From Marsupella aquatica (Eukaryota > Plantae > Marchantiophyta), in the NCBI GenBank assembly GCA_973895155.1, contig OZ316894.1, positions 21,361,867-21,425,866 on the forward strand: a stretch of DNA of 64,000 nucleotides. Reading direction: 5' to 3'. Each line of letters starts with the position of its first letter. Positions within the stretch are counted from its first letter, which is position 1. This document shows, piece after piece, positions 18,920 to 44,207 of the stretch. The translations under genes were made by a program, and so were the position numbers. The notes beneath the pieces were generated by a model that worked only from the letters and a program-made list of their open reading frames with translations, made no database searches and had not been told where the DNA came from.

Positions 18920-19540
18920 CATTCTGCACGAAAACGATCGGCTTTCCCCAACATTGCATCAGGCTTCCTCCTCCTCTTCCTCCTTCATTCTGCATGACAA
19001 CGATCAGCTTCTCCCCAGCGTCGCGTCAGGCTTCCTCCTCCTCTTCTTGCTTCATTCTGCAAGAAATCGATCAGCTTCTCCCCAGCATTGCATCGGGCTT
19101 CCTCCTCTTCATCCTTCATTCTGCATGAACCCCATCGGCTTCTCCCCAGTATTGCGTAAGGCTTAGTGCTCCTCGTCCTGCTTCTATCTTGCATCAAAAT
19201 GATCAGCTTCTCCAACATTGCGCAAGGCTTCCTCTTCCATTTCATACTTCATTCCGCATCAAAACGATCAGCGTCGCCCCACCATTGCGCAAGGCCTCCT
19301 CCTCCATTTCCTGATTCATTCCGCATCAAAACGATCAGCCTCTCCCCAACATTGCGCACTCCATTTCATCCTTCATTCTGCATCAAAACGATCAGCTTCT
19401 CCCCAACATTCCACAAGGCTTCCTCCTCCATTTCCTGCTTCATTCCGCATTGAAAACGATCAGCCTCTCCCCAACATTGCGCAAGGCTTCCTGCTTCATT
19501 TCATCCTTCATTCTCCATGAAATCGATCAGCTTCTCACCA
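18920..19540. repeat. Degenerate tandem repeat (~66-bp unit, ~10 copies) immediately upstream of POLE
   Basis: Unit ~CATTCTGCATCAAAACGATCAGCTTCTCCCCAACATTGCGCAAGGCTTCCTCCTCC...TCCTT. The GATCAGC core recurs at ~18936, 19002, 19069, 19201, 19266, 19333, 19390, 19458, 19525. Confidence 0.9.
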
Positions 19541-19689
19541 AGAGAAATTGCCGAACTCCTCGGACGTTGTAGCGTCCACGAAGAGAAGAGCGCGGGACCG
19601 AGATCAGTCTGTCTGCTCCTGTCCCCGCCATTTGAACACAGACGTCAGAAAGGGCGGGAGTGGTAGTCTCCCGCGTTCGGTGATACGGT

Positions 19690-20135
19690 GGCTCTGTAAC
19701 TCACGGTGTAAACTGTAAATCTCCATTAGTATTGGACAGGCGGTCTGGTATGAGGTTACTAGCATGTAACCCTATGTAACATATGGTGTAAGTTGTAAAC
19801 CTCTGGAGGTAGAAGAGATAGGCGTCTGGTGTTATTAGTATTTAACCCTATGTTACATGTGTAAACTGTAAACCTCTGGAAGTAGAGGAGATGGGCAGTC
19901 TGGTCTGGGGTTACTAGCATGTAACTCTATGTAAATTGTGTAAACTGTAAACCTCTGGAAGTATAAGATAATGGCGGTCTGGCCTGAGGTTACTAGGATG
20001 TAACCCTATGACAAGAAAGTGAGGAGAACAGTCTGGCCTGGGGTTACTAGAATGTAACCCTATGACAAGAAAATGAGGAGAAGGGTCTGGCCTGGCGTTA
20101 CTAGCATGTAACCCTATGACAAGAAAGTGAGGAGA
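19690..20135. repeat. Degenerate tandem repeat array (GTCTGG..GGTTACTAGCATGTAACCCTATG modules)
   Basis: GTTACTAG(C/G/A)ATGTAAC(C/T)CTATG and TGTAAACTGTAAACCTCTGGA modules repeated about 7 times. Confidence 0.8.
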
Positions 20136-20233
20136 ACCCTATTGGAAAGTTTTTAGGAGCTTTCTTGGAGCAAGGTTCAGGTAAGAACCCTTGCCCAAAT
20201 GTCCATTATAGTACATAAATCCTGTCAAGAGAA

Positions 20234-20575
20234 GAGGTTACCGGTGTGTAACCATTTCTAGAGGGCCTGCTATAGTCATAATCTACTGCCCTGAAAAGTA
20301 GAGTCGGTGACCTCTTTCCGGACAGGAGTTACGTACACTAGTGCAGGTCTGGGCTGGGGTTATAGACTGTAACCTGCTCCCGGAATATTCAAAGAAGCTT
20401 TCCGGCTGCCGCCGGTCAACTTCTTTTCATATTCCGGACGCAAGGTTACAGTCTAGTAACCTACACCCAGACCTGCATTACCCTATACATGATTACATGT
20501 AGAAAAGGATTATTTCCGGGCAAGAGATGATGGAAATATCAGGTACCCCTGAAATTGGTTACACACTGATAACTC
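20234..20575. mobile_element. Foldback/MITE-like imperfect inverted repeat
   Basis: Inner palindrome 20342-20477 (TGCAGGTCTGGG..GGTTA.TAGACTGTAACC..CCGGAATAT / ATATTCCGG..GGTTACAGTCTA.TAACC..CCCAGACCTGCA). Outer arms ~20234-20300 and ~20505-20575 are also reverse-complementary (GTGTGTAACCA / TGGTTACACAC). Confidence 0.6.
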
Positions 20576-20930
20576 ACATTCCAAATAGAAATCAGGCATC
20601 TACTGGACTAGTGCTAACGACAATGACCAATGCCCAACGGCAATCATTCCACTGGCTTTCTGGTTGCACAAAGGAGGTCAAGTTATTACCTTAGTGCCCT
20701 TCTTGATTTCCTCATTGTAATTTTGATGGCATTTGCTCAGAAGAATGCATTCAAGATTTGGATGGGCTCGTTATGAAAATTCTACTTTGAAAATGAAAAT
20801 CTCTTAAACCTTTAAGTTTATTAAGGTTGTTATACCAGAACATTGGGCCTCTCAAAAACTCAAACTCAATTGTCAATGAATTTTTGCATACAATGCTTTC
20901 AATTGTAAATAGTCATTTACTATGTACTTA

Positions 20931-21710
20931 ACTAACTCAATACCCGTGCGTTCCACAAAAAATGTCGTGTCGGCCAAGTTGTCATTGAGAACAAAAGATA
21001 TCGTGTCGGCCAAGACGCCGGTGAGAAGATGTCATGTCGGCCAAGTCGGCCAAGAAGTCGTTGAGAGCAAAAGATGTCGTGTTGCCCAAGATGTTATGTC
21101 GGCCAAGATGTCAGGGAGAACGAAAGATGTCGTGTCGGCCAAGAAGTCGATGAGAACAAACAGGAGAACAAAAGATGTTGTGTCGGCCAGGAGGTTGTTG
21201 AGAAGAAAGATGTCATCTCGGCCAAGAGGTTGTGGAAGAAATAGAGGTCGTGTTGCCAATGGTGTTGTTATGCCAAAGGTTTCGTTAAATATAACAATGT
21301 TGTTAAATACAAAATAGCTCAATACCTGTGCGTTGCACAAAAGATGTTGTGTAGCCCAAGATGTTGTTATGTGAAAGATGTTGTGAAGCAAAAAGATGTC
21401 ATTAAGAACGATGAAGTTGTTTCGCCAAAGATGTAGTTATGTTAAAGACGTTGTCAAGTAAAAAGATGTTGTTAAAAAAGAAGTCATTTTGCCAAACATG
21501 TCGTCAAGTAAAAAGTTGTCATCAAGTAAAAAGTTGTCGTCAAGTAAAAAATTGTCATTTACAAAAAAGACGTCATTTTGCCAAAGATGTCGTTTTGCCA
21601 AAGATGTCATGAATAAAAAGATTTAGTCGAGTGAAAAGATGATGTGGTGCCAAATGGGTCGTTATGCAAAAGACATTGTGAAGTAAAAAGATGTCGTCAA
21701 GTAAAAGTGT
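20931..21710 (-). mobile_element. Probable non-autonomous Helitron remnant with AAGATGTCGT(GTCGGCC) tandem repeats
   Basis: Two copies (20931, ~21313) of ACTA(A/G)CTCAATACC(C/T)GTGCGTT(G/C)CAC. Its reverse complement resembles the plant Helitron 3' end (GTGCAACGCACGGGTA...CTAGT). Followed by degenerate AAGATGTCGT repeats. Confidence 0.45.
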
Positions 21711-23316
21711 GCCCCCTAGCCCAACACCTTGCCATCAATGTTAGTGCCATGATATTTGCTATGTCTTTGGACCTTATAACTTTTGATTTTTTGGCAGTGA
21801 AAATGGCACAAAAAATGAATGTAAAAAATCACCCTGAATATTGGAAGAATTATGTTTTATTTACGGACCTCATTAGGGATCCTTTCCAAAATTCCAGGCT
21901 CCACAGCGCGTGACATCATCATGGCACACTACAAACACAAAGAGACTTGTTTTTGGATAAAATTAATTTCTGCATTCATGTTTGTGGCAACTTTTCTATA
22001 AAATCTGGGACGTTATGCTTTAAAAGAGAATGTAAAAAAATCTGACATGCAAATCAAAAGACAAAGATTGAGGTAAAATTGCCCCTAGTAACGGTTTCAT
22101 TTATAGTTTGATTTTACTCAAAATGTAAAATTTTCTCGGCAGCAATTTTTGATTTGACATTGTTAAGTCAAATCATAATGAAAACTCACGTATAATATGA
22201 CGTTGGAACAATCTTGAAGAGACGGTCCTAATGAGCTCAGGATTGTCACCATTCAGTAAGAATTGAGTAAGCAATTTCAAAAATAGATTTTACCCTTGAT
22301 TTCATAATCTCTAACGTGAATACCCGTGTGAATAGAAATAAAAAAATTTGTTCCACAACCCTTGAAATGTTGATCCCTTCCATGAGAATGAACCAAAAAT
22401 TTGACAGATTTTATCGAGTACTAAGGAGATTATGAGTTTTAGAATTTCCTTAGATTTTTAATGAACTTAACATTGATAGATTTAATTGAGTTTTGAGTAG
22501 ATTATGAGTTTCTAAATTTCTCTAGCTTTTGATCGATTCCAAAGTCTACAATTGGAGATATGTTTTCATGAATGTTTTGTCTCAAACAATTATGCTAAGT
22601 TAGTGATTTGACGACAATGTCGGCTTCTCTCTTCATCTCTCTACATGTAGGAATTGAAAAGCGATTACTTTCAATGCAACTTGAGTGCATCTGACATCCT
22701 TTTGGTACCATGGAGGAAACCATGGAGCACCGTTTTGCTGAAGTGGGCAATTAAACTACCCAACATTAAACAATAGTTCACATTGTAGCTGGTTTTGTGA
22801 TTCATGTTAATTCTGGTTGCCTTGGTAAGTTTGGCAACTGTTTCAAGTGTCAAACACTGACTTGTCCATTTTTGAAGAAAAAAATAATCTTTAGATTTGG
22901 AGGTCTAGTTGGGCTTGAGTTTCTAGACAATGGCCTCTGTTAGGTATTGCTCTTAGTCTTGTGACTCTTGAGCTAACCACAGTTAGGCTAACTTAGGTTA
23001 GGACTTAGCTAAGGTTAGCGGTAGTGCTGTTGTGTATAAAGCTAGGGCTGGTGCGAGTCCTTGGTGGATCTTCAGGTCATTGTTGGAGTGGAGCAAGAGA
23101 GAAGTAAAGGTCTCTTGCTTTCCCATGGACGTAGCCTCAACCGTGAGGTGAACTATGTACTTGCTGTGTCGACTACTTTGTATGGTGTTCATATGTGCAT
23201 GGTGTCTCGGGATAAGGATTATCCCCAACAGCCTCTAAAATAACATGGGTCGGGGGTCCACTGATTAATTGGTTAGTGTATGTAGTCCCCTATTGATTGA
23301 AATAGTATCTGAAATT

Positions 23317-23648
23317 TGTCACACCATTCTAGGTAGTGTTAGAGTGTATCGTACTATCTAGATCCGTATGTTTGGTATGTGTGCTATATGAGCTGATAAG
23401 GTTCCGTTAGGTTTGTGTGAGAGGGTACTTCTCACTTGTGAGGCATTGAAAGGTCATCTTTCAATGTTGAGCCTTGGAGAGAGAGGAGCTTGAGTGTGGC
23501 TATGGTGGCTGTGAGCTCCGCTTGTGTAACGTGGATTCCTTGAGTAGTGCAAGGTGCGTTGGCTTGACATACATGTGTGATCGGATCGGTGTGGGATCGA
23601 TGGGGTATTGTTGACCGGGATCGTTGTGCCGATTGTATGGAGATTACA
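23317..23648 (+). repeat. Terminal repeat A1 (5' end of retroelement)
   Basis: 23317-23646 matches 31761-32090 with 7 substitutions by my count (6 transitions). Begins TG and ends ...GAGATTACA. Confidence 0.95.
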
Positions 23649-24660
23649 TTAGAAGATCAGATGCGAACTTTGTTGTGCGGACTGTGCAAACAGAAGTTCA
23701 TATGTGTTGATTGAGTTGGGGACGGTTTGGGGAAATCATTGTGTGGATCCGTGGTAGCTCGGATCGTATTGAATAGATCATTGGTATCTTGGTTGGTTGC
23801 TGGTAACGGATCTGAAGTGGGAGATCCGAGTTCTGAAGTTTTGCTGTTGACGGTTTTCGGATAGAGTTCTCAAGCAGATCTGTGGTGCCGTTCGATCATT
23901 GTGAAGCCTTTGATAAGCTGATTGGGTGATTATTGCGTGAGGCACGCGAGGTCACCCATCCCGAAAGTGCTCCCAACCGCGAGCGCAAAGTCATCCATCG
24001 CGAGCGCAGGCAGGCGCGAGGTCGAGGTCACCCATCCCGAGGCTATTCCGGGCCGTGAACGCGAGGGGAGGCACGAGGGCTATTCCGAGTCGTGAGCGCA
24101 AGGCGAAGCGCAAGGTCACCCATCCCGGGGCTATTCCCAACCGCAAGCGCTTAACTGGCAAGTTCTCATCCCACCTTGTGTACACACAAGTTTTCACAAC
24201 TTGTTGTTTAGATTCAAGCGCCAGGGGGCTTTATACACTTTCCGGTTTGCTTAGAGCCTTGTTTCGGGCCAAATCATAGGCTCTTTAGAGATTTTTGATA
24301 GTTCTGAGTTCATCTAAATACACAGATTGAACCAATTCTGCATGGTTTCTCATCTATAACATTGGGACATGATGAAGCCTATTATGAAGGCCTGTCATTG
24401 AACATTATGAATATTTGTTTGATCAATGTGTGATCACTCTTGGTGTGGAGAGTTAGTGTTTGACTATTCTTGTTGATTGGATCCTCTCCACACTTGTTTC
24501 CTGTTTATGCGCCATGTTGGTTCGGTATGGGCGCTTGATTCCATAGGAGTGATCCGGGTTTGCAACCGGACATTCTAGTGTGCTGTGTATTTCTCTCCTG
24601 GTGATGTTGGAGTGATGCCCAACACACCATGATATGTAGACATTGCGTAACGCCACGTTG

Positions 24661-26049
24661 TTTACCTGTTTCATGGCATGGAAGGGATTATTTCAGCATT
24701 TGGAGGGGTCACCCATGGATAACTACCATGAGTTTTGGAAGGCTCATTTGGTTGAGATTGAGGCATGGAGGTAGCATTGGTCACCTAATTACGTGTCCAT
24801 CACCTATGGCACTAGTGCGGCTGCCCAACCCATTGCCACAACTGCTGCTTCTTCTAGCAGCACTAGCCAGAGTGGCACACCATCCACCAGCAGCACTCCA
24901 ACAGCATCCACCGCTACTCCTGCCGGTGTGATTGTGACAAGAACTGGAGTTGCGCCAGCATTTAACCCTATGGTGGAATTCTTTGAGGTACTGAAGCAGA
25001 ACTATCAGGGTGTGAGAACTGATAAGTTGAAGGGTCTCCAGGAGTTCCAACGTAAGATTGGAGAGAGTCTACGCGAGGCATACACTCGTATGCGCAGATT
25101 GATCACTGTCACCAAGGGAGTGGCAGAGGCTCAGGCAGTCCAGTTTTGGTATGCAATTCTGGACAGAGAATTGCGACGCAAAGTGAGAGATGTCACCTTG
25201 CTTAGGGATGCAGATCCCACATTGGCAGTTGTTTTTACCCTTTCTGAGCGTATTGAGCTCAATATGGTGAATGAGAAGGTGGTGACTTCCGGATTTTCCA
25301 AGGAAGCACCAAAGGCTGCGTCTACATCCACACCACAGCCTACTACACGGAAGAGCCAGAGGAAGAAGCCTACTGCACGAGAGTCTACCAGCCAGAGACC
25401 TGTGCCCTCTTATGCTGGACAACAGTCAGGATGTTGGACCTGTGGTGGGGATCATGCACAGAGATATTGCCCACATCATAGAGGATCAGGGGGAGCATCA
25501 GCGCCTGATTAGCGATAGTGTGATCACTGTGGAGCTCCTAGACACACCAAGGATAGGTGTTTCTCACTCCACCCTGAGTTACGGAGAGGAGGATCACGTA
25601 CACATGATCAAGAAAGAGGAGGAGGAGGTAGAGGTGGTGGACGTGGTCGTGGCATGCCACATGCAGGGAGACAGGGAGGTGACGCTGCCCTTGCTGTAAC
25701 CATAGATCCAAAGGATGCTAAGATTGCTCAATTGGAGCAACAACTAGTTGCCATGGCTAGTTCCCAGGTGAGACCTAATTTTGGTGATGGGGCATCTACA
25801 TCCTATGGACCTTCCACATCCCATGGTCCTTCCATATCTTATGGAGCTAATGGAGACCTTGCCACCATGGGATTCATGTGTGGCACTGCACATATTGATG
25901 CATCAACAACGTTGACACGTGGGGCAGCCAAAGCTCTTGAGCCCCGAGGAGCAGTAGTGGAGTTAGATCCACAGAGGGGGATGCACGTTGGCAGACAAAG
26001 CTTCCTCAGTCTTTTATATTGTCAGAGACAATTTAGACTACCTTTATGA
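24661..26049 (+). pseudogene. gag: gag of the retroelement (capsid-like region, two CCHC zinc knuckles, RGG tract), interrupted by in-frame stops; true start not determined
   Basis: LQEFQRKIGESLREAYTRMRRL (retrotrans_gag-like Q..GES motif). Knuckle CWTCGGDHAQRYC and, reading through TAG codons at 25510 and 25516, CDHCGAPRHTKDRC. Same frame continues into ORF 25654-26049. Confidence 0.8.
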
Positions 26050-26435
26050 ACCCGGTTTGGACAAACCCTGATGTGGGTAAGTCGGCAGAATCAGGTAGTG
26101 ATGCAGCAGGGATGACAGGTACCCTACTGGGGGCGGCTACTGCCATGGTACGCACCCCATTATTTTCAGCAACAGACATGCTGAACTTGGGAGTTGGTCC
26201 TGCATAAGTGTTCAGATTGGCAGCTACACTCTGTGAGGACATTCCAGTGGTTGCTTCCCATGCAGAAGCAACTTGCAGTGTTGAAGCAGTGAAGACCATG
26301 CCACCTACTGCTACTAGTGAGACATGGCATGCAGCAGCAGCAAGGTTGGTGGAATTACCAGCACGCTCTGCATTTGAGAGGACTAGGTTCAAACCTAGTG
26401 TTGTGTCATTGGAGAATCGAAGTGGTATCTTCTGA

Positions 26436-26790
26436 TTAGTTGGGCCTTCTGGGGCAGTATACCAGCCAGAGAGAGTGTTACTGAATATTGGTGCTCAACC
26501 CTTGATGTTGGGTAAGTCTACCATACGTGGATTGGGATTGCGTCTGGAGGATTTGGAGGATTGTCCCTTTCCCATTCAGACTTCATTGGGGGACCTACAC
26601 CTACACAGCACATTACCAAGAGAGCTCTTGATTTGAGGTTTCAGGAAGGTCATACCACAGATAGCTCACAGATATAGGCGCGAGCTATTCTGACTAAGGC
26701 AGAGTCATATGATGTGTTGGTGGGATGTATAGTGCTCTACCCCATGGAATTTATTCTTGATTTTTGGGAGGAATCAGTGTCATATAGACA
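26436..26790 (+). pseudogene. Retroviral-like aspartic protease domain (degenerate, frameshifted)
   Basis: RVLLNIGAQPLML (DTGA motif degenerated to NIGA by two transitions) and downstream YDVLVG (ILG-like motif) in a shifted frame. Confidence 0.7.
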
Positions 26791-27189
26791 GGACATCTAT
26801 ATATGGCAATCAGAAGATGCTCGATTGAGCAAATTGCTAGTGAGATTTAGTGGACCTATGGGAGGCCCTAAATCCACACCATTGTCTTTGGCAGCATTCA
26901 GTGGTCAATTGCTGGACCTGATGATTTGATTGAGGGTAATGCGCATGCAGCAGATGTTCCACCATTGGAGGAGTCTCATGAGGAGCACATCATGCGAGGA
27001 TTACCTATTGGCAGTGTTGTGCCACCAGTGTGGGGCACTGCACAGGCCTTGCCACACGCAGCAGCACGATTGGTACATGATGCATGACGTCATGCTTTTA
27101 CACCACAGTCAGGACCAGAGCAGTCTCTTGCAGATGGACTTGTGACTCTTTCACCATTAGATACCACTCCTATTGCTTGGCAATACCCA

Positions 27190-28140
27190 CTGGTATTTGC
27201 TTGTTGGATCTTTTTGGTGGGATTAGCAGATTGGCTGTTGTTCTTCAGGCAGAAATTCTTGTGCGTCGTTATTTGTATGTGGAGACAGATGAGACAGCAC
27301 GGAGGGTCTCATTGCGACATGTGGCTATGTTGGTGGATAGATATCCACAATTGCTGCCAGTGGATGCTGTTTGTGGTTATCAGCATGCACTACCTGCTGA
27401 TATTTCATTGTTGGGGGCGGATCATCTGCATCGTGTTGGCCCCATTGATTTGGTGATTGCTGGTTGGCCATGTTAGGACCAATCTAGAGCTGGCATTGGG
27501 CATGGACTTCATGATCCACGCTTTGCACTATTTTGGGAGATGTTACGGGTGCTGCGTCATCTCCAGCTACATCAGACACAGTCTCCAGCCATTTTGGAAA
27601 ATATGTCATTGTTAGGTGATGATCGTAGTCGGATTGTTGCTAGTGTTCACCAGGTGAGGTCTTGGATTGGACCTGCTGTGTTATTGGATGTTGCACGTGT
27701 GGGTTCTCGTGCACATCGTCCACGCTTGTGGTGGACCAATTTGATCCCATGTGAGGTGCTGAAGCGCGCATTTGACAGCATTCCACGCTCACCAGCCTTA
27801 GTGGTGGATGATATTTTGGATCTAGGGCGTCGTGCACAGGGTGTGACCCAATCTGATAGACCTCCATTGGCAGTGGTCAATGTAGTTGGGCACCCACGTT
27901 GTGCATTACCCACTCTTGTAAGCCACTCTGCTTCATATGCATTCAAAGCAAGTGGCCCTGGACTTGTGTGGGACACATCTCTCCAACAGTTAGTGGAGCC
28001 TACTGCTGATGAGAGAGAGCGTGTTATGGGATTTTTGACTGGCACCACTGCAGTTGCCTCTGTGTTAGAGGGTTTGCGGCGCCAGGTTCTTGGTCAAGCA
28101 ATGGATCTGAATTGTTTGACTTGGATTATCAGCTTGGGAG
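27190..28140 (+). pseudogene. DNMT3-like C5-cytosine DNA methyltransferase domain embedded in pol (nonsense codon right after catalytic PC)
   Basis: Motif I LLDLFGGI, II YVETD, III ADI, IV GPIDLVIAGWPC*(TAG, likely from CAG), VI ILENM, VIII RAHRPRLWWTNL, IX ERERVMGF..G.T, X RRQVLGQAMD. Canonical non-permuted order. ORFs 27084-27476 and 27540-28322 share a frame with RT. Confidence 0.92.
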
Positions 28141-28472
28141 TAGTTGAACAATTGCGGATGCGCTCTACTAGAATTACTGATTGCCCCTTGGTGAGCTTGC
28201 AGTCCACTGAGACAGTACTGACCACAGCTGGGGGCGAGCAGACCTATGGACCTATGGCAGGATTGGCCAAGGCTGGACAGATTGTTGAGCAGGAAGGGAC
28301 TGCTCAATCTACTGCTAAATAGCAATCATCGACTATCTCTTCTACCCTACAAAGAGATATTAGGGATTTGGTGGAGAGTGAGGAACCACAGCTTGGCCCT
28401 AAGTTGACAGGGAAGGAGAGACGTCGCATGCATTGATTCCTGAAGAGTTACTGGAATTGTTTTGCATTTAGC

Positions 28473-29219
28473 ATGAAGGATTTGGGGACATTAAAGGGTC
28501 CTGGTATTCAGATTGAATTGGCTAGTGATGCGCCAATCTTTCGTAGGCCATACCGTTACACTGACATGGAGAGAGCTCTGATTCAAAGTAGAAATCAAGA
28601 TTTGTTGGAGGCTGGATTGGTGGAGATTTCATATGAGGAGTATGCATCTGCCACAGTGATGCCAGCCAAGAACGATGTGCATGGCAATTACACAGATAGG
28701 CGCATTTGTGGTGATTACAAACCCATTAATCGCCAAACAAAATCTGATAGATATGCCATGCCCACACCTGAGGAGATCTTTGATGTTGTGGGGCATGCAA
28801 AGGTTTTTAGTTCATTGGATCTGAGGGCAGGGTACCACCAGCTTCCAATTAGGCATGCTGACAGGTCCAAGACAGCATTCTGGGGGATTGATTCTTATGG
28901 CGAGGATCGTTTGTATCAGTGGTTATTCTTACCATTTGGGTTGAAGAATGCACCAACTGAGTTCCAGAGAGTCATGGATCGAATCCTTGCAGGTTTGGAT
29001 TTTGTCAGATGTTATATTGATGATATTTTGGTCTATTCTTCTACTGTGGAAGAACATCAGCAGCACTTGCAGATTGTGTTGGAGAGATTGAGAGCACATG
29101 GGTTGAAGCTCCATCTTAGCAAGTGTAAGTTCTTCCAAGACCAGATTGAGTATTTGGGCCACACTATATACCCAGGGGGATTGGGTGTACAGCAGACTAA
29201 AGTAGAGGCCATTACATAG
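28473..29219 (+). CDS. pol: Reverse transcriptase domain (Ty3/Gypsy type), part of interrupted pol
   Basis: RICGDYKPIN, FSSLDLRAGYHQL, KTAF, LPFGLKNAP.EFQR, YIDDILVYS, KCKF..IEYLGH. Confidence 0.96.
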   Translation: MKDLGTLKGPGIQIELASDAPIFRRPYRYTDMERALIQSRNQDLLEAGLVEISYEEYASATVMPAKNDVHGNYTDRRICGDYKPINRQTKSDRYAMPTPEEIFDVVGHAKVFSSLDLRAGYHQLPIRHADRSKTAFWGIDSYGEDRLYQWLFLPFGLKNAPTEFQRVMDRILAGLDFVRCYIDDILVYSSTVEEHQQHLQIVLERLRAHGLKLHLSKCKFFQDQIEYLGHTIYPGGLGVQQTKVEAIT

Positions 29220-29237
29220 ATTCCTTGTCCTACTGAT

Positions 29238-30098
29238 GTGAGTAGAGTTCGTGCATTCTTGGGATTGGCGAGCTACTACAAGAGGTATGTTAAAGGATTT
29301 AGCCAGCTTGCTAAACCTTTGACCATACTCACTAAGTTGGATCATGAATGGATTTGGGGTGATGACCAGGAGCATGCCTTTCAGGAGTTGAAGCAAAGGT
29401 TGGCATCATCCCCTATTTTGAGAAGACCCATTTTAGGCAGACCATTTCAGCTACACACTGATTGGAGTGGCGTAGGACTTGGAGCAGTGCTGACTCAGAA
29501 GGATGATGAGGGGAATGAGTTTGTTGTGGCTTATGCCAGCAGATCAAACAATTCAGCAGAGGCTAAGTATAGCTCTTATGAGGGAGAGTGTTTGGCAACA
29601 GTGTGGGCTGTTGCACATTTTCGTTGCTACTTATTTGGTAACCCCTTCACCTTGATCATTGATCATCAGCCTCTTAAGTGGTTAATGGAGTCTGACAAGC
29701 TTACAGGGAAGCTTGCACGATGGACATTGTTGTTACAGGAGTATGATTTCCAGGTGGTGCATAGGCCTGGGAAAGTGAACTTGGATACAGATGGATTAAG
29801 CCGCAATCCATGTACTAGTCAGCAAGATGAGACTGGAGCCAGATGGCATGATGAGTCAGATAAGGAGATGGTGCCAGGATGGCATGCATCTGCCTTTCTT
29901 TGTTGGATGCCAGCATATAGTGGATCTGTGGACTCTACCTCATTGGATGGAGTGGATGAGGAGTCTTCAGATGTAGATGTTGGTGAGGTAACTTCTGGAC
30001 AACAAGATATTCACAATGATGTGAGAATGTTGGAATATCTGCGCAGTGGTTCTATTGTTGGCAATGTTGATGCCAAAGAACGTGACAGGGTTCTATAG
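29238..30098 (+). CDS. pol: RT connection + RNase H domain, part of interrupted pol
   Basis: VRAFLGLASYYKRYVKGFS, FQLHTDWSGVGLGAVLTQ, VAYASR, YSSYEGECLA, FTLIIDHQPL, RWTLLLQEYDF..HRPGK.N..DGLSR. Confidence 0.95.
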   Translation: MSRVRAFLGLASYYKRYVKGFSQLAKPLTILTKLDHEWIWGDDQEHAFQELKQRLASSPILRRPILGRPFQLHTDWSGVGLGAVLTQKDDEGNEFVVAYASRSNNSAEAKYSSYEGECLATVWAVAHFRCYLFGNPFTLIIDHQPLKWLMESDKLTGKLARWTLLLQEYDFQVVHRPGKVNLDTDGLSRNPCTSQQDETGARWHDESDKEMVPGWHASAFLCWMPAYSGSVDSTSLDGVDEESSDVDVGEVTSGQQDIHNDVRMLEYLRSGSIVGNVDAKERDRVL

Positions 30099-30134
30099 AG
30101 AGCCAAGAGGTTTCGATGGGAGGAAAACCATCTT

Positions 30135-31448
30135 TTGAGAGTACTGCATGATGGCAGGGTGTTGGTGGTACCAAAACCATCACAACGAGTCCATTTGGTG
30201 CGACATGCACACGAGGAGTTGGGGCACTTTGGTGTGAAGCGCACTTATAGCTTGCTACAGACACAGTATTGGTGGCGTGGTATGCACACTCATGTCCAGC
30301 AGTTGATAGCTAAGTGTGTGGTATGTGATAGAGTGAGAGCATCATTTAATGCTCCCACTCCCCAGTTGCACCCGTTGCCGATCATGGGTTTGGGATATCG
30401 TTGGAGTTTGGATTTTGTTGGTCCATTACCTCTTACCCAATGTCATAATCGGTATGTTTTGGTCATGGTGGAGCACTTCTCCAAGTGGATTGAGCTAGTG
30501 ACATTGCCAGATAAAGCCAGTGGAGGAGTTGCTGCTACATTTTTGGATCGTGTACTCAGTCATTTTGGAGCACCAGTTGAGGTATTGACTGATCAGGGAA
30601 CTGAGTTCCGTGGAGAGTTTGAGAATTTGTGTGAGCAAGCTCTGATTGATCATCGTACTACCTCTCGTGATCATCCTGAGGCAGATGGATTAGCTGAGAG
30701 AGTTGTGCAAACTGTGAAGAGAGGATTGCGTAAGTATGGCTTGCAGGTTGGTCATTTGGGAGATTGGGATCTCCAGCTACCTTGGTTAGCTATGGGCTAC
30801 CATTTCAGTCGACAAGCATCACTTGCATCCTTCTCACCTTACTTTTTGCTCTATGGTAGAGAGCCAGATTTGCCAACAGCAATTCGTCGTGATGCTGCAC
30901 CAATTGTGAACTTGGATGATCCTGATGTTTGGGCCAAGGTGTGTTCAGAGAGAGCACAGGTATTTCAGAGAGTAATGCCCATGACTTTTGACAACCTTGC
31001 CATTGCCCAACATCGTGATACTTTGAGGTATGCCACTATTCGTGGAGGAGGTTATCGTGCAAGCATTCGACGATTTCATCCTGGTGATTATGTTTATTTG
31101 CAGCAGACAGCACCCACGACACTTGATGTGATCGTAGGCCGGACAATCTTACGTGTGCATGAAGTGTTGCCTTCTGGTGTCCTGATGTTGGAGGGATGCG
31201 ATGGTATGGTTTGGAAGGATCATGTGCGCAACTGTGCACCATGTCACCTTCCCAACATTGATGGTACAGTAGATCCAAGCTTGGCACATGTTCGTGCTGG
31301 CTTGAAATGTATGTTGTGTGGATCTGCTCAAGGAGCAACTACTATGTTGATTTGTGATAAGTGTTCTAGAGGATGGCACATGTCATGTTTGACACCACCA
31401 TTGCAGGTGATTCCTAGTGGATCATGGTTGTGTCCTCAGTGTCGGTGA
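30135..31448 (+). CDS. pol: DDE integrase with N-terminal HHCC zinc finger and C-terminal PHD finger
   Basis: HAHEELGHFG...CVVC; catalytic WSLDFVGP, LTDQGTEF, GLAERVVQT. C-terminal CMLC...ICDKC...WHMSC...WLCPQC (C4HC3) at 31308-31445. Confidence 0.95.
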   Translation: MRVLHDGRVLVVPKPSQRVHLVRHAHEELGHFGVKRTYSLLQTQYWWRGMHTHVQQLIAKCVVCDRVRASFNAPTPQLHPLPIMGLGYRWSLDFVGPLPLTQCHNRYVLVMVEHFSKWIELVTLPDKASGGVAATFLDRVLSHFGAPVEVLTDQGTEFRGEFENLCEQALIDHRTTSRDHPEADGLAERVVQTVKRGLRKYGLQVGHLGDWDLQLPWLAMGYHFSRQASLASFSPYFLLYGREPDLPTAIRRDAAPIVNLDDPDVWAKVCSERAQVFQRVMPMTFDNLAIAQHRDTLRYATIRGGGYRASIRRFHPGDYVYLQQTAPTTLDVIVGRTILRVHEVLPSGVLMLEGCDGMVWKDHVRNCAPCHLPNIDGTVDPSLAHVRAGLKCMLCGSAQGATTMLICDKCSRGWHMSCLTPPLQVIPSGSWLCPQCR

Positions 31449-31612
31449 AGCCGACTAGTTATCATTTGTGTTCTCTTGGCAGATATGGATTGCAGGTAGG
31501 TGATCGATGGGGCTCACTTGCACCCGGCCTCCTGATCTTCACACCTAAAAAGGTGTATATCAACCTTGTAGAACTCATGGCTAGCTAGAGTTAGGGGACC
31601 TTATTTCCAGCT

Positions 31613-31621
31613 AGGGGGCGA
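31613..31621 (+). other. Putative polypurine tract
   Basis: AGGGGGCGA directly before TTGTGGG, the start of repeat B1 (TG at 31623). Confidence 0.55.
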
Positions 31622-31758
31622 TTGTGGGTTTTGGACATGTGTGGACATGAGTTCCACTTGTATTCCATTCTCTTGTGTTTGTGATGTGGCAGTGTGACTA
31701 TGTTTGGATGTATGTGACAAGCGATGTATGTTGTGTAGCGATGTGTATGCGCACGACA
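31621..31758 (+). repeat. Repeat B1 (internal copy of the element's 3'-terminal segment)
   Basis: Matches 32090-32227 with 4 transitions. Ends CACGACA, followed by GC and then A2. Confidence 0.95.
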
Positions 31759-31760
31759 GC

Positions 31761-32090
31761 TGTCACCCCATTCTAGGTAGTGTTAGAGTGTATCGTACTA
31801 TCTAGATCTGTATGTTTGGTATGTGTGCTATATGAGCCGATAAGGTTCCGTTAGGTTTGTGTGAGAGGGTACTTCTCACTTGTGAGGCATTGAAAGGTCA
31901 TCTTTCAATGTTGAGCCTTGGAGAGAGAGGAGCTTGAGTGTGGCTATGGTGGCTATGAGCTCCGCTTGTGTAACATGGATTCCTTGAGTAGTGCAAGGTG
32001 CGTTGGCTTGACATACGTGTGTGATCGGATCGGTGCGGGATCGATGGGGTATTGTTGACCGGGATCGTTGTGCCGATTGTATGGAGATTA
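31761..32090 (+). repeat. Repeat A2 (internal copy of the element's 5'-terminal segment)
   Basis: Matches 23317-23646 but lacks the final CA of A1 at the junction with B2. Confidence 0.95.
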
Positions 32091-32227
32091 TTGTGGGTTT
32101 TGGACATGTGTGGACATGAGTTCCACTTGTATTCCATTCTCTTGTGTTTGTGATGTGGTAGTGTGACTATGTTTGAATGTATGTAACAAGCGATGTATGT
32201 TGTGTAACGATGTGTATGCGCACGACA
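32090..32227 (+). repeat. Terminal repeat B2 (3' end of retroelement)
   Basis: Copy of B1. Ends in CA, followed by the AATT TSD. Confidence 0.95.
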
Positions 32228-33067
32228 AATTTAACACCTACCAATATTACACTAAACTATGCACTATCTCACTCTTGAGTATGTACACCTTATTGAGTAT
32301 GTACAATACTCCCTATCATGGATCATGGAGGGAGGATCCTCCTTCATCCTTGTGCATTGTATTAGTGACCTCTCTTTTTTGTTTGCTTATCCCATTTCAT
32401 TCTCTCTTACTTGGACATTGATGTGACTCTTTTTCATTCACAGTGAATTAATTTTATTTTGTTTTTATTCCTTTCTTTTACCAGATTTTTTTTTGTGTTG
32501 TGCCCTGCAAATTTGAAAGACTACCGGGCTATAAAAGGGCGCAACTGTTTATGATAGAAGTTAATGTCCTTAGTGAGTTTCTCTCTTTATAATTTTCAGG
32601 ACAGTCAAGATTTGGTAATTGAAGCCACAATGGACCGTAGTGTTGGACAAAGTGCTCCCATGGACCACCAAAATATGGTCCATGGGAGTCAGGGGTCATA
32701 ACTTGATGGCTATGAATCCTAGAGTAATTTTTAGTTTTGCACCTGCAAGGCAACTATAGAAGGAGGAGACTAAAAAAACAACATAAACCCAGGTATTTCA
32801 TACTAACACAATGGAAAAAAATGAAAAACAACAAATACTAGCACAATGAAAATTAATCTAATGAAATTTACCCCTCCTCATTTTATGATGAAAAACTTAA
32901 CCAAAATGGCCAAAAAGTTATTGTCACTTTGATGGAAGTTTAGCGTACTTGCTCCTCATGCATATGCCAAAACTAGAAATATTTGAATTTATGAATATCA
33001 AGTTATTACAATTAAACTCAAACTTTGGGGCCAGAGAGACATGACTTTGTGGTAACTCACTTGAGTA

Positions 33068-42531: not shown

Positions 42532-44016
42532 TCAGGTCTCATCATCCGGTTTAGTGTCTTGTTTTGTGGTCTCATCATCCGGTTTAGTGTCTTTTTTTGT
42601 GGTCTTGTCATCCGATGACAGTTCAGATTCTGATTCATCGAGCTCGCTGGCGCGGTCGTCTTTATCAGGAGCGGGAGGATTGGCTTTCCGCTCATGAAGA
42701 GCTTTGACGACGAGGTCGATGGCACTGTCCGGGTTGCTTCTCTCTTTGGTGAGAATCTCAGCAATTTCGGCAGGACTCATGAAGCTGGAGTCAATAATTT
42801 CCTGCACATCTGCGAAACGAGGGTGATCCTTGATCTGCAGGAAGTTTCTGACCAGAATTTTGAATGCGGGATAGCGGCAATAGCCAAGGTTGATGTGCAT
42901 GTCCATACGTCCCGGGCGTAGCAATGCCGGTTCCAACTTGTGGACAAAGTTCGTGGTGAAGATAAAGATGCGCTCAGATCCACATGCGGACCATAAACCG
43001 TCGGTGAAGTTGAGCAATCCGGAAAGGGTCACCTTGCTTGGCTTGTCTTCGTCATCGGTCTTACTTCTAGGATCCTTCGGTTTCTTCTCCGCAGACTTCT
43101 TCTTCTTCTTTCTTTGGCCGGAAAGGTCTAGCGAACAGTCAATGTCTTCGATGACTATGATGGACTTGTTGGAGGTGTGAAGAAGGAGCTTGCGCAGGTC
43201 CGAATTTGTTTGGACTTCCGTGAGCTCCAGATCATAGACGTCGTAGCGCAATCGGTTGGCCATCGCGGCGATAATCGAAGTTTTTCCTGTACCAGGAGGC
43301 CCGAAGAGCAGGTAGCCTCGTTTCCAAGCTTTGCCGACACGCCTGTAGAACTCTTCACCATGGACGAAACTGTCGAGGTCGTTCAGTAAGCTGAATTTCT
43401 GGTCTGGATCAAGAGCGACAGTGTCGAAACTGGCAGGGTGTTTGAAAGGAATACAAGTCCACCCACCACTCGTGCCGTTGCGATCAATGTTCCTGTTGGA
43501 ATACAGGTTCAGATCACGATTGGCCCTTTCAAGCACTTTAGCCTCCTCGACAATATAAGCGAAGTAGCTATCCAAGAGGAAATCCTTTTGTCGACGAGGC
43601 ATTTTCACTTGAAAGGCTCGCCTCTCATCACTGTTGCTCTCCCAGTTCATCCAAAGGGGGTTCCTCCGCTCCTCCACGTTGTGTATCCATTCCACTGGCA
43701 CTTTCTCGAAGTTATCACGGATGCGCTGATTTCTGGTCAGACTGAAGGTGAAGTTCTTTGCGTTCTTCGCCATTGACAAATTGGACTTGCGCGCTCGCTG
43801 TCGGGTTAGCGAGCTGAGGTAGGTCTGCACTGCGGCATACAGTTCGTTGGGAGTTGTGCCTTCGTACTGCGAAACGACGAAGTAGGTGTAAGGAGATACT
43901 AGATTCACTAACCGGTCTGCAAAGTAGTTCCAGTACTCGCTCGGTATGAATCCTTGCATGACGGCCGCCATTGCGAGCACCGATCCTATCCAACTCATCG
44001 TCTCCGAAATCTGCAT
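42532..44016 (-). CDS. BCS1-like plant AAA-ATPase (ASD/OM66 family), intronless
   Basis: 494-aa ORF. AAA_assoc-type N-term (NELYAAVQTYL), FKHPASFDTVALD, FYRRVGKAWKRGYLLFGPPGTGKT (Walker A), IIVIEDIDC (Walker B), VTLSGLLNFTDGLWS, ALLRPGRMDMHI. Ends in a duplicated TK.DTKPDDET tail. Confidence 0.95.
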   Translation of the reverse strand: MQISETMSWIGSVLAMAAVMQGFIPSEYWNYFADRLVNLVSPYTYFVVSQYEGTTPNELYAAVQTYLSSLTRQRARKSNLSMAKNAKNFTFSLTRNQRIRDNFEKVPVEWIHNVEERRNPLWMNWESNSDERRAFQVKMPRRQKDFLLDSYFAYIVEEAKVLERANRDLNLYSNRNIDRNGTSGGWTCIPFKHPASFDTVALDPDQKFSLLNDLDSFVHGEEFYRRVGKAWKRGYLLFGPPGTGKTSIIAAMANRLRYDVYDLELTEVQTNSDLRKLLLHTSNKSIIVIEDIDCSLDLSGQRKKKKKSAEKKPKDPRSKTDDEDKPSKVTLSGLLNFTDGLWSACGSERIFIFTTNFVHKLEPALLRPGRMDMHINLGYCRYPAFKILVRNFLQIKDHPRFADVQEIIDSSFMSPAEIAEILTKERSNPDSAIDLVVKALHERKANPPAPDKDDRASELDESESELSSDDKTTKKDTKPDDETTKQDTKPDDET

Positions 44017-44207
44017 CTTGAATTGTCAGTGGGTTTCCCCGGGGGTTTCCGTTATCCAATTGGATTCCTCTATGGGTGCTCGCTGCCTGCTTGCTCGATG
44101 AAGAAAAATACAAAACGAAGGTTTCTCTCAATCCCCAAATCACCGACTCTCCTCAGTCGCGTAAGCTGTACTAGCAACTCGGACTACAGAGTTGGCTGAG
44201 TACTGAC

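Follow-up and report, generated by a model that had tools for sequence, protein, structure and literature searches.

A DNMT3-bearing Ty3/Gypsy element with split repeats in the liverwort Marsupella aquatica, and a proposed integration route through an inherited internal palindrome

How does a retroelement that encodes a DDE integrase come to carry split direct repeats, with a single repeat (A) at its left end and the block B-GC-A-B at its right? This question is raised by a stretch of 64,000 nucleotides from Marsupella aquatica (contig OZ316894.1, positions 21,361,867 to 21,425,866, forward strand; hereafter the window), which harbors a retroelement of 8911 bp at window positions 23317-32227 with AATT directly on either side. 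The prevailing view of long terminal repeat (LTR) elements and retroviruses is that linear complementary DNA (cDNA) is integrated by its ends, circles being regarded as by-products; the inserted copies described here, across several families, cannot be products of such linear ends. The structure is real and family-wide, and it likely represents a new variant of LTR retrotransposition. From comparison of the inserted copies, we consider it probable that the donor is an end-joined, circle-like cDNA which is opened by the integrase at the left of its internal palindromes.

Layout and boundaries of the element

The element is composed, in order, of repeat A1, a gag-pol region occupying 24631-31448, a polypurine tract and a terminal block B1-GC-A2-B2 (31622-32227). 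Its features, with the evidence for each, are as follows.

23313-23316, plus strand: left target-site duplication AATT (empty-site joint; 4-bp length fixed by relatives)
23317-23646, plus strand: repeat A1, 330 bp, with left attachment end TGTC and likely promoter, R and U5 (self-comparison; TATA-like box in relatives)
23456-23466, plus strand: predicted 11-nt self-primer, likely the first transcript bases (complement of the 11 nt after A1)
23647-23657, plus strand: predicted primer-binding site adjoining A1, decayed here, with no tRNA-type TGG start (self-primer complementarity)
24631-26007, plus strand: Gag-like region containing CCHC knuckles, interrupted by stops and shifts of frame (tblastn to Marchantia P0002, 50%)
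26399-26911, plus strand: likely aspartic protease region, broken (tblastn to P0002, 34%)
27186-28199, plus strand: DNMT3-like C5 cytosine methyltransferase domain, with a stop in the catalytic-motif region (PF00145, E 5.5e-7)
28437-29744, plus strand: reverse transcriptase (RT) and RNase H, with one in-frame stop between the Pfam matches (PF00078, E 2.4e-34; PF17917, E 3.5e-36)
30099-31307, plus strand: DDE integrase, H2C2 zinc finger and rve core (PF17921, PF00665)
31308-31442, plus strand: C-terminal PHD finger (PF00628, E 8.9e-11)
31613-31621, plus strand: polypurine tract adjoining B1 (sequence; G-run before B1 in relatives)
31622-31758, plus strand: repeat B1, 137 bp, ending GACA (self-comparison)
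31755-31764, no strand: palindrome GACA-GC-TGTC, composed of the right end, a 2-nt spacer and the left end, where the integrase likely cleaves (unchanged in 9 of 80 loci)
31761-32090, plus strand: repeat A2 (self-comparison)
32091-32227, plus strand: repeat B2, flush-joined to A2, with right attachment end GACA (self-comparison; contig ends)
32228-32231, plus strand: right target-site duplication AATT (self-comparison; empty-site joint)

The two copies of the 330-bp repeat A differ at 7 positions and those of the 137-bp repeat B (138 bp if the shared A is counted) at 4; 10 of these 11 differences are transitions, and the counts of 7 and 4 suggest about equal ages for the two pairs. The outer ends read TGTC...GACA, and the GACA-GC-TGTC 10-mer of the B1/A2 junction occurs once in the window, where 0.12 occurrences would be expected. 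Although a 6-bp AAATTT duplication with GT..AC ends would also fit the window copy alone, the 4-bp duplication was chosen because relatives settle its length at 4 bp.

A joint from 23311 to 32227, corresponding to an empty site with a single AATT, was present in two public sequencing runs (three contigs in each), and the boundaries are, therefore, not an assembly artefact. Since the flanks (22800-23316 and 32228-32300) are high-depth repeat, these joints may stem from paralogous empty sites, and the element is likely nested within another repeat. Contigs which exit the element exactly at the end of B into unlike flanks numbered 17, 37, 9, and 1 in four runs, with an agreement of 0.36-0.46 where several were found. 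Further loose ends, in 6 and 14 contigs (agreement 0.56), lie before 32085 and look like divergent ends of A rather than flanks. As no loose ends at the start or end of A were found among the 24 of 294 contig-end rows listed, left-end diversity in M. aquatica itself rests on one contig and the empty site.

The element is real, present in high copy number, and bounded as stated in an earlier sequence-only reading of the window. The split A-internal-B-GC-A-B layout with its AATT duplication, as described in that reading, was confirmed by self-comparison and by the empty-site joint, and insertion as a single unit by a DDE integrase is borne out by the ends, the 4-bp duplications and the integrase domain.

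Recurrence of the layout in related insertions

Relatives were collected in a metagenome scan, which yielded 80 loci whose ends were analyzed where the flank sufficed (34 screened); merging of duplicate loci by flank reduced 22 5′ ends to 17 independent ones, the window included. All 17 start with TGTC or a decayed form of it, and B is missing upstream in every case, such that the canonical structure of Ty3/Gypsy elements with two full LTRs was not encountered. Both ends were visible in 11 independent insertions, each of which starts at A, ends at B and is flanked by its own 4-bp duplication (exact in eight, with one mismatch in three), the TG..CA ends being kept; the duplications at the right ends of L048, L059, L060, and L080 were taken from direct end reading. 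The prediction that copies throughout the family would start TGTC, end GACA and have their own duplication was thus upheld in 11 of 11 cases, and ordinary paired LTRs, the pattern with which the sequence-only reading had contrasted it, were found in no copy among the 80 related loci.

The long form A-internal-B-GC-A-B accounts for five of the 11 insertions (window, L020, L058, L068, and L075), and the short form A-internal-B for six (L009, L018, L041, L048, L059/60, and L076). L002 represents a sixth long form, ended by its contig end inside A2, and B-A-B right ends are present in a further four loci (L008, L028, L036, and L065), with L038 keeping the last six bases of B2 only. In one family (L048/L080 and L059/L060), the CACGACA motif at the end of B is present twice in tandem, 17 nt apart, and it is at the inner of these that two insertions end. 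A regular-expression match to GACA-NN before the 5′ end of L020 proved to be its target duplication, with no B upstream.

It is, therefore, practically negligible as a possibility that the window copy is a one-off accident (autointegration or nested recombination) or the mis-assembly of an ordinary LTR element: while the evidence for this copy itself comes from the assembly and sequencing contigs, independent loci of two other families have an identical layout, which has also been published for Klebsormidium nitens (see below), and the empty-site joint and the many flanks at the end of B in four runs point the same way.

Loci L023, L045, and L052-054 display the order tract-B-palindrome-A-leader, without B2. 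L053 (1-13768) and L054 (1-13735) show a terminal overlap over a 13594-bp unit of an algal-type relative; they may represent either a collapsed multi-copy loop or a true one-LTR circle, and were treated as collapsed, counting neither for nor against circles. A search of viral contigs gave no match to the element.

Coding content and protein relatives

The order of the Pol domains identified with Pfam (RT, RNase H, and DDE integrase) is that of Ty3/Gypsy elements. The Gag and protease regions gave no Pfam match and were identified through tblastn with the Marchantia protein P0002, the protease label at 26399-26911 being likely in view of its position and an LLDSG motif in P0002. The best solved relatives of the methyltransferase domain are DNMT3A (E 1.5e-7), followed by 3C and 3B. 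No chromodomain match was obtained at the integrase C terminus at E values up to 0.1, and a PHD finger stands there; neither was a tyrosine recombinase detected among the eight window open reading frames (ORFs) scanned with Pfam. With its reading frame interrupted by several stops and shifts of frame, the window copy is dead. The sequence-only reading had lacked the DNMT3-like domain and the PHD finger, as well as the self-priming site discussed below.

The nearest named proteins are those of Marchantia polymorpha (57-73% in the methyltransferase region) and Sphagnum fallax, to which a profile search (103 matches) added K. nitens KFL_009030040 and Haematococcus lacustris. The K. nitens protein has the identical order DNMT-RT-RNase H-integrase, with 43% identity over 1310 amino acids. 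In an RT tree (quick search, midpoint root without an outgroup, and DNMT-bearing rows only), the window element and K. nitens fell within one clade of 10 rows in which DNMT precedes RT, with a support of 99 in the Shimodaira-Hasegawa-like approximate likelihood ratio test (SH-aLRT). DNMT precedes RT in 17 proteins, whereas in 40 it follows RT/RNase H, and these two arrangements, which separate in the RT tree, both retain the palindrome and the self-priming site. The element probably adds a land-plant-type member to the Gypsy-Dnmt3 lineage.

A D(34)E spacing was found in the integrase of 24 of the 25 scorable proteins (of 120 collected). D(35)E is the usual spacing in Ty3 and retroviral integrases, and the deviation may be related to an unusual integrase substrate.

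Several M. polymorpha genes annotated as hypothetical (Mp4g09160, Mp8g17980, and Mp6g11220, among P0002, P0003, P0004, and others) resemble the Gag-protease-DNMT3 frames of the element. The proteins of many relatives extend no further than the DNMT domain, a hint that a stop or frame change precedes RT. One protein, P0082 (RT-DNMT-integrase-PHD), is labeled as originating from a Minisyncoccia bacterium metagenome-assembled genome and likely represents eukaryotic contamination.

Priming site and the LTR made by reverse transcription

As is expected of Ty3/Gypsy elements, a priming site, here of a predicted self-priming type, follows the 5′ repeat, and a polypurine tract precedes the 3′ repeat. 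No tRNA-type TGG is present after A1; instead, the 11 nt located there can pair with an 11-mer within repeat A, their best complement in the window lying at 23456-23466 (score 9.5/11, reached by 1% of control 11-mers). Of 16 copies, 11 had their best complement at this first site, with matches that 0-7% of control 11-mers attained, and in relatives the self-primer lies approximately 30-33 nt behind a TATA-like box; no clear TATA box was called in the window copy. The primer and site arms differ in sequence yet pair in six families, namely, that of the window, two AT-rich families, L023 (16 bp), and L045 and L052-054 (12 bp each). When leaders were folded, three of five relatives formed the duplex with a probability near 1. 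A G-run stands before B1, directly or within three bases, in both bryophyte-type and algal-type relatives.

A copy of the priming site occurs just 5′ of the self-primer in the window (approximately 23444-23466) and in repeat A of L002 and L023, giving a hairpin across the predicted start. Such a hairpin in the 3′ repeat could mask the second primer copy; it is missing from the other AT-rich family.

Because the self-priming site abuts the end of A and the polypurine tract abuts the start of B, the LTR generated by reverse transcription likely spans from the start of B to the end of A (B-GC-A), as the sequence-only reading had suggested. Two details of that reading have to be given up. The TGTGGG..GATTACA form does not qualify as a conventional LTR, as the ends of B-GC-A are not kept as TG..CA in relatives (one family has CA at the end of A, and another has ATAC..CAAT). 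Nor has a terminal CA been lost at A2/B2, because the CA that follows A1 lies outside the repeat and opens the primer-binding site.

The internal palindrome as integrase site

The exact 10-mer GACAGCTGTC was found in 9 of the 80 loci, always downstream of pol, and decayed versions were present at the corresponding place in other loci. It is also exact in GC-rich relatives which are 36-41% identical in RT and which carry the methyltransferase between RNase H and integrase; of the 12 loci of GC-rich or divergent type that were scanned, some being short, five lack the exact form (L047, L050, L063, L078, and L079). The palindrome has been conserved across much evolutionary divergence, even in distant relatives of the algal type. 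The proposal that the attachment site is the internal CA-GC-TG palindrome gains support from this conservation and from the family-wide ends, and we hold with high confidence that the integrase acts on it rather than on the cDNA ends, a view which is common to the end-joined, template-jump, and symmetric-circle readings weighed below. CA-3′OH ends with 2-nt 5′ overhangs are the substrate form of retroviral integrases. HIV-1 integrase has been described to cleave the 2-LTR junction palindrome in vitro, and 2-LTR circles to be able to feed integration, in the parts of PMC1905944 and PMC4372172 that deal with these junctions.

The A2/B2 join and the origin of B2

In one family, all four copies have a flush join between A and B, one of them showing transition decay; in another, this holds for two of three, the third being 2 nt shorter, and no indel at 32085-32095 was seen in the family of the window among the 12 of 17 indel rows listed. 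The imprecise, end-joined junction envisaged earlier was, therefore, not found: the join is flush and nearly fixed between copies. Non-decay variants of B2 (those other than C>T/G>A, relative to the column majority) were common with the copy's own B1 in 12 instances (7 pairs), with the B1 of other copies in 2 (18 pairs) and with the B2 of other copies in none (9 pairs), and such private variants reach up to 6-14 nt from the join. Because of the flush join and these private variants, B2 is likely remade from its own B1 in each cycle through the joining of the right cDNA end to the left end.

Proposed integration route and alternatives

Transcription is proposed to start in the middle of A1, and the first 11-12 nt of the RNA would anneal to the sequence adjoining the end of A1 and serve as primer, as in Tf1. 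With plus-strand synthesis beginning at the polypurine tract, reverse transcription would yield the cDNA B-GC-A-internal-B-GC-A, whose right end (the end of A) would be joined flush to its left end (the start of B), creating a new B2 from B1 in each cycle. The integrase would then cut both strands of the left palindrome at CA|GC in a staggered manner to produce CA-3′OH ends with 2-nt 5′ overhangs, the insertion of which with a 4-bp stagger would give A-internal-B-GC-A-B. The short form could arise from a one-LTR circle, from cutting of both palindromes, or from later B1 × B2 recombination; being without a 3′ R repeat, it is likely a dead end. Opening at the left palindrome only might reflect a nick or flap left by reverse transcription, which is a guess.

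Several observations weigh against the end-joined route. All of its mechanistic steps are read from inserted copies and contigs, and B2 was not seen in algal-type relatives, whose contigs look collapsed or stop short. In 4 of 16 copies, the priming site has its best complement at another site deeper within A, L006 shows no complement above background, and the leaders of the window copy (decayed) and of two of the five relatives do not fold into a self-priming duplex. By overall distance, its own B1 is nearest to B2 in only three of seven long copies, and the joins are cleaner than host end-joining is expected to give. Furthermore, a mirror form A-B-GC-A-internal-B was not seen (0 of 17 5′ ends; 0 versus 5 long forms besides that of the window; one-sided binomial 1/32 in a small sample), and would be expected because a covalent two-LTR circle has two identical palindromes, either of which could open. 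The circularized-cDNA route of the sequence-only reading stands as regards the internal palindrome as attachment site and the B-GC-A LTR, but not as regards a plain symmetric 2-LTR circle, as the mirror product which this predicts was not found. A polar intermediate would be the simplest reading of the missing mirror form, which decay into the short form could also hide.

Such polarity, together with the flush join and the copying of B2 from B1, would likewise follow if no covalent circle were formed and RT jumped from the end of A to the start of B, generating an overlong linear or lariat cDNA (B-GC-A-internal-B-GC-A-B...) trimmed at internal palindromes; the insertions of L048/L080 and L059/L060 which end at the inner CACGACA look as if the integrase had chosen among internal sites. 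We regard this alternative as rather unlikely: RT would have to jump without homology each time the element replicates (the overlap at the join being no more than 1-2 nt), the ends at the inner site could mark a subfamily without one tandem unit, and the overlong intermediate is itself deduced from inserted copies. A symmetric circle whose two palindromes are cut equally, with the mirror form collapsing into the short form via A × A recombination, would agree with short forms (6) being about as common as long ones (5) and with A being two to three times longer than B, but is very improbable, as every mirror form would have to be lost while long forms whose repeats diverge by up to 15% persist. 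Templating of the kind proposed for PAT and Ngaro, in which the RNA would run through B2, the A2/B2 join would be inherited and B1-GC-A2 would act as a splint restoring the ends, has in its favor the nearly fixed join and the A1-B1-A2-B2 layout outlined for PAT, Ngaro, and Viper in PMC4157794; it is nonetheless improbable, since B2 shares private variants with its own B1 and no non-decay variants with the B2s of other copies, the LTR cycle delimited by the self-priming site and polypurine tract is an ordinary one, the eight ORFs scanned yielded no tyrosine recombinase, and the 4-bp duplications and TG..CA ends point to a DDE integrase. The end-joined donor opened at the left palindrome remains the reading that we favor.

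Relation to known systems

The layout had been termed undescribed in the sequence-only reading, a claim which has to be withdrawn: in the legend to their Fig. 4c, de Mendoza et al. 2018 (PMC5890265) state that KnitGypsy-Dnmt3 of K. nitens combines Gypsy domains with a repeat arrangement resembling that of DIRS elements. The likeness thus extends to the DNMT3 domain inside a Gypsy Pol and to the DIRS-like split repeats (A-coding-B-A-B in the usage of that paper), whose text provides, for this element, no ends, duplication, priming site, palindrome or mechanism. Judging from the protein, KFL_009030040 presumably represents a KnitGypsy-Dnmt3 copy. In the literature searched, the KnitGypsy name occurs in PMC5890265 only, streptophyte Gypsy-DNMT3 elements are mentioned without their repeat layout in bioRxiv 10.64898/2026.05.21.726589, and no mechanism for a split-repeat Gypsy layout was found in the open literature, subscription papers, Repbase reports and bioRxiv supplements being outside reach. 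Within this literature, the anatomy (priming site, palindrome, flush join, and B1-derived B2) and the mechanism are likely new.

Self-priming has been described for Tf1/sushi and Tcn1 elements (sections of PMC6317226 and bioRxiv 10.1101/2022.12.06.519325), with which the window element, compared by features, shares the Ty3 domain order, predicted self-priming without a tRNA site and a polypurine tract; it differs from these chromoviruses by its PHD finger in place of a chromodomain, its DNMT3 domain and its permuted ends. PAT, TOC1, kangaroo, Ngaro, and Viper share the A1-internal-B1-A2-B2 order and an internal copy of the end-to-end junction, as outlined in PMC4157794. In contrast to these, the window element has a DDE integrase with no recombinase found, a 4-bp duplication, TG..CA ends, a polypurine tract and a self-priming site, and the resemblance is likely convergence.

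The cleavage of retroviral 2-LTR junctions is similar in that a DDE integrase cuts a CA..TG palindrome in double-stranded DNA (passages of PMC1905944 and PMC4372172); there, the palindrome is formed by the joining of cDNA ends, and its cutting restores the linear form as a side route. In the window family, the palindrome is instead inherited inside the LTR and is apparently the sole route. Among bacterial elements, the DDE enzyme of IS3, IS911, and IS30 acts on abutted ends 2-3 bp apart in a circular donor; these are, however, DNA transposons, whose junction is made by the transposase rather than carried in an LTR.

Other features of the window

An intronless plant AAA-ATPase gene of the At3g28540 type (PF14363, PF00004, and PF25568) is located at 42532-44025 on the minus strand. 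Several degenerate tandem arrays, with units of approximately 67, 54, and 17-18 nt, occupy 18945-21724.

Implications

Integration through a circle junction was once proposed, and then dropped, for retroviruses, and integrase cleavage of junction palindromes is a debated side reaction of HIV-1 and foamy virus. The layout, the ends, the 4-bp duplication, their recurrence in the family, the conserved palindrome and the flush A/B join are observed directly in the inserted copies. Taken a step further, it is somewhat probable that integration is obligate through end-joined cDNA, opened by the integrase in the manner of a restriction enzyme at the inherited GACA-GC-TGTC, in a green-lineage-wide Ty3/Gypsy clade, ranging from chlorophyte algae to mosses and liverworts, in which the ends made by RT are uncoupled from those used by the integrase. 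The findings also suggest that an A-B-A-B layout can arise without a tyrosine recombinase.

The survey behind REXdb used LTR finders needing two terminal repeats, according to the portion of PMC6317226 concerned with element detection. Finders of this type would miss the clade, some copies of which are annotated as hypothetical genes. If true, the proposed route would provide a natural LTR element with circle-junction integration as its normal route, carrying its own DNMT3 and PHD finger, and integrase cleavage of junction palindromes would become testable as a normal route of integration, with M. polymorpha as a likely tractable host.

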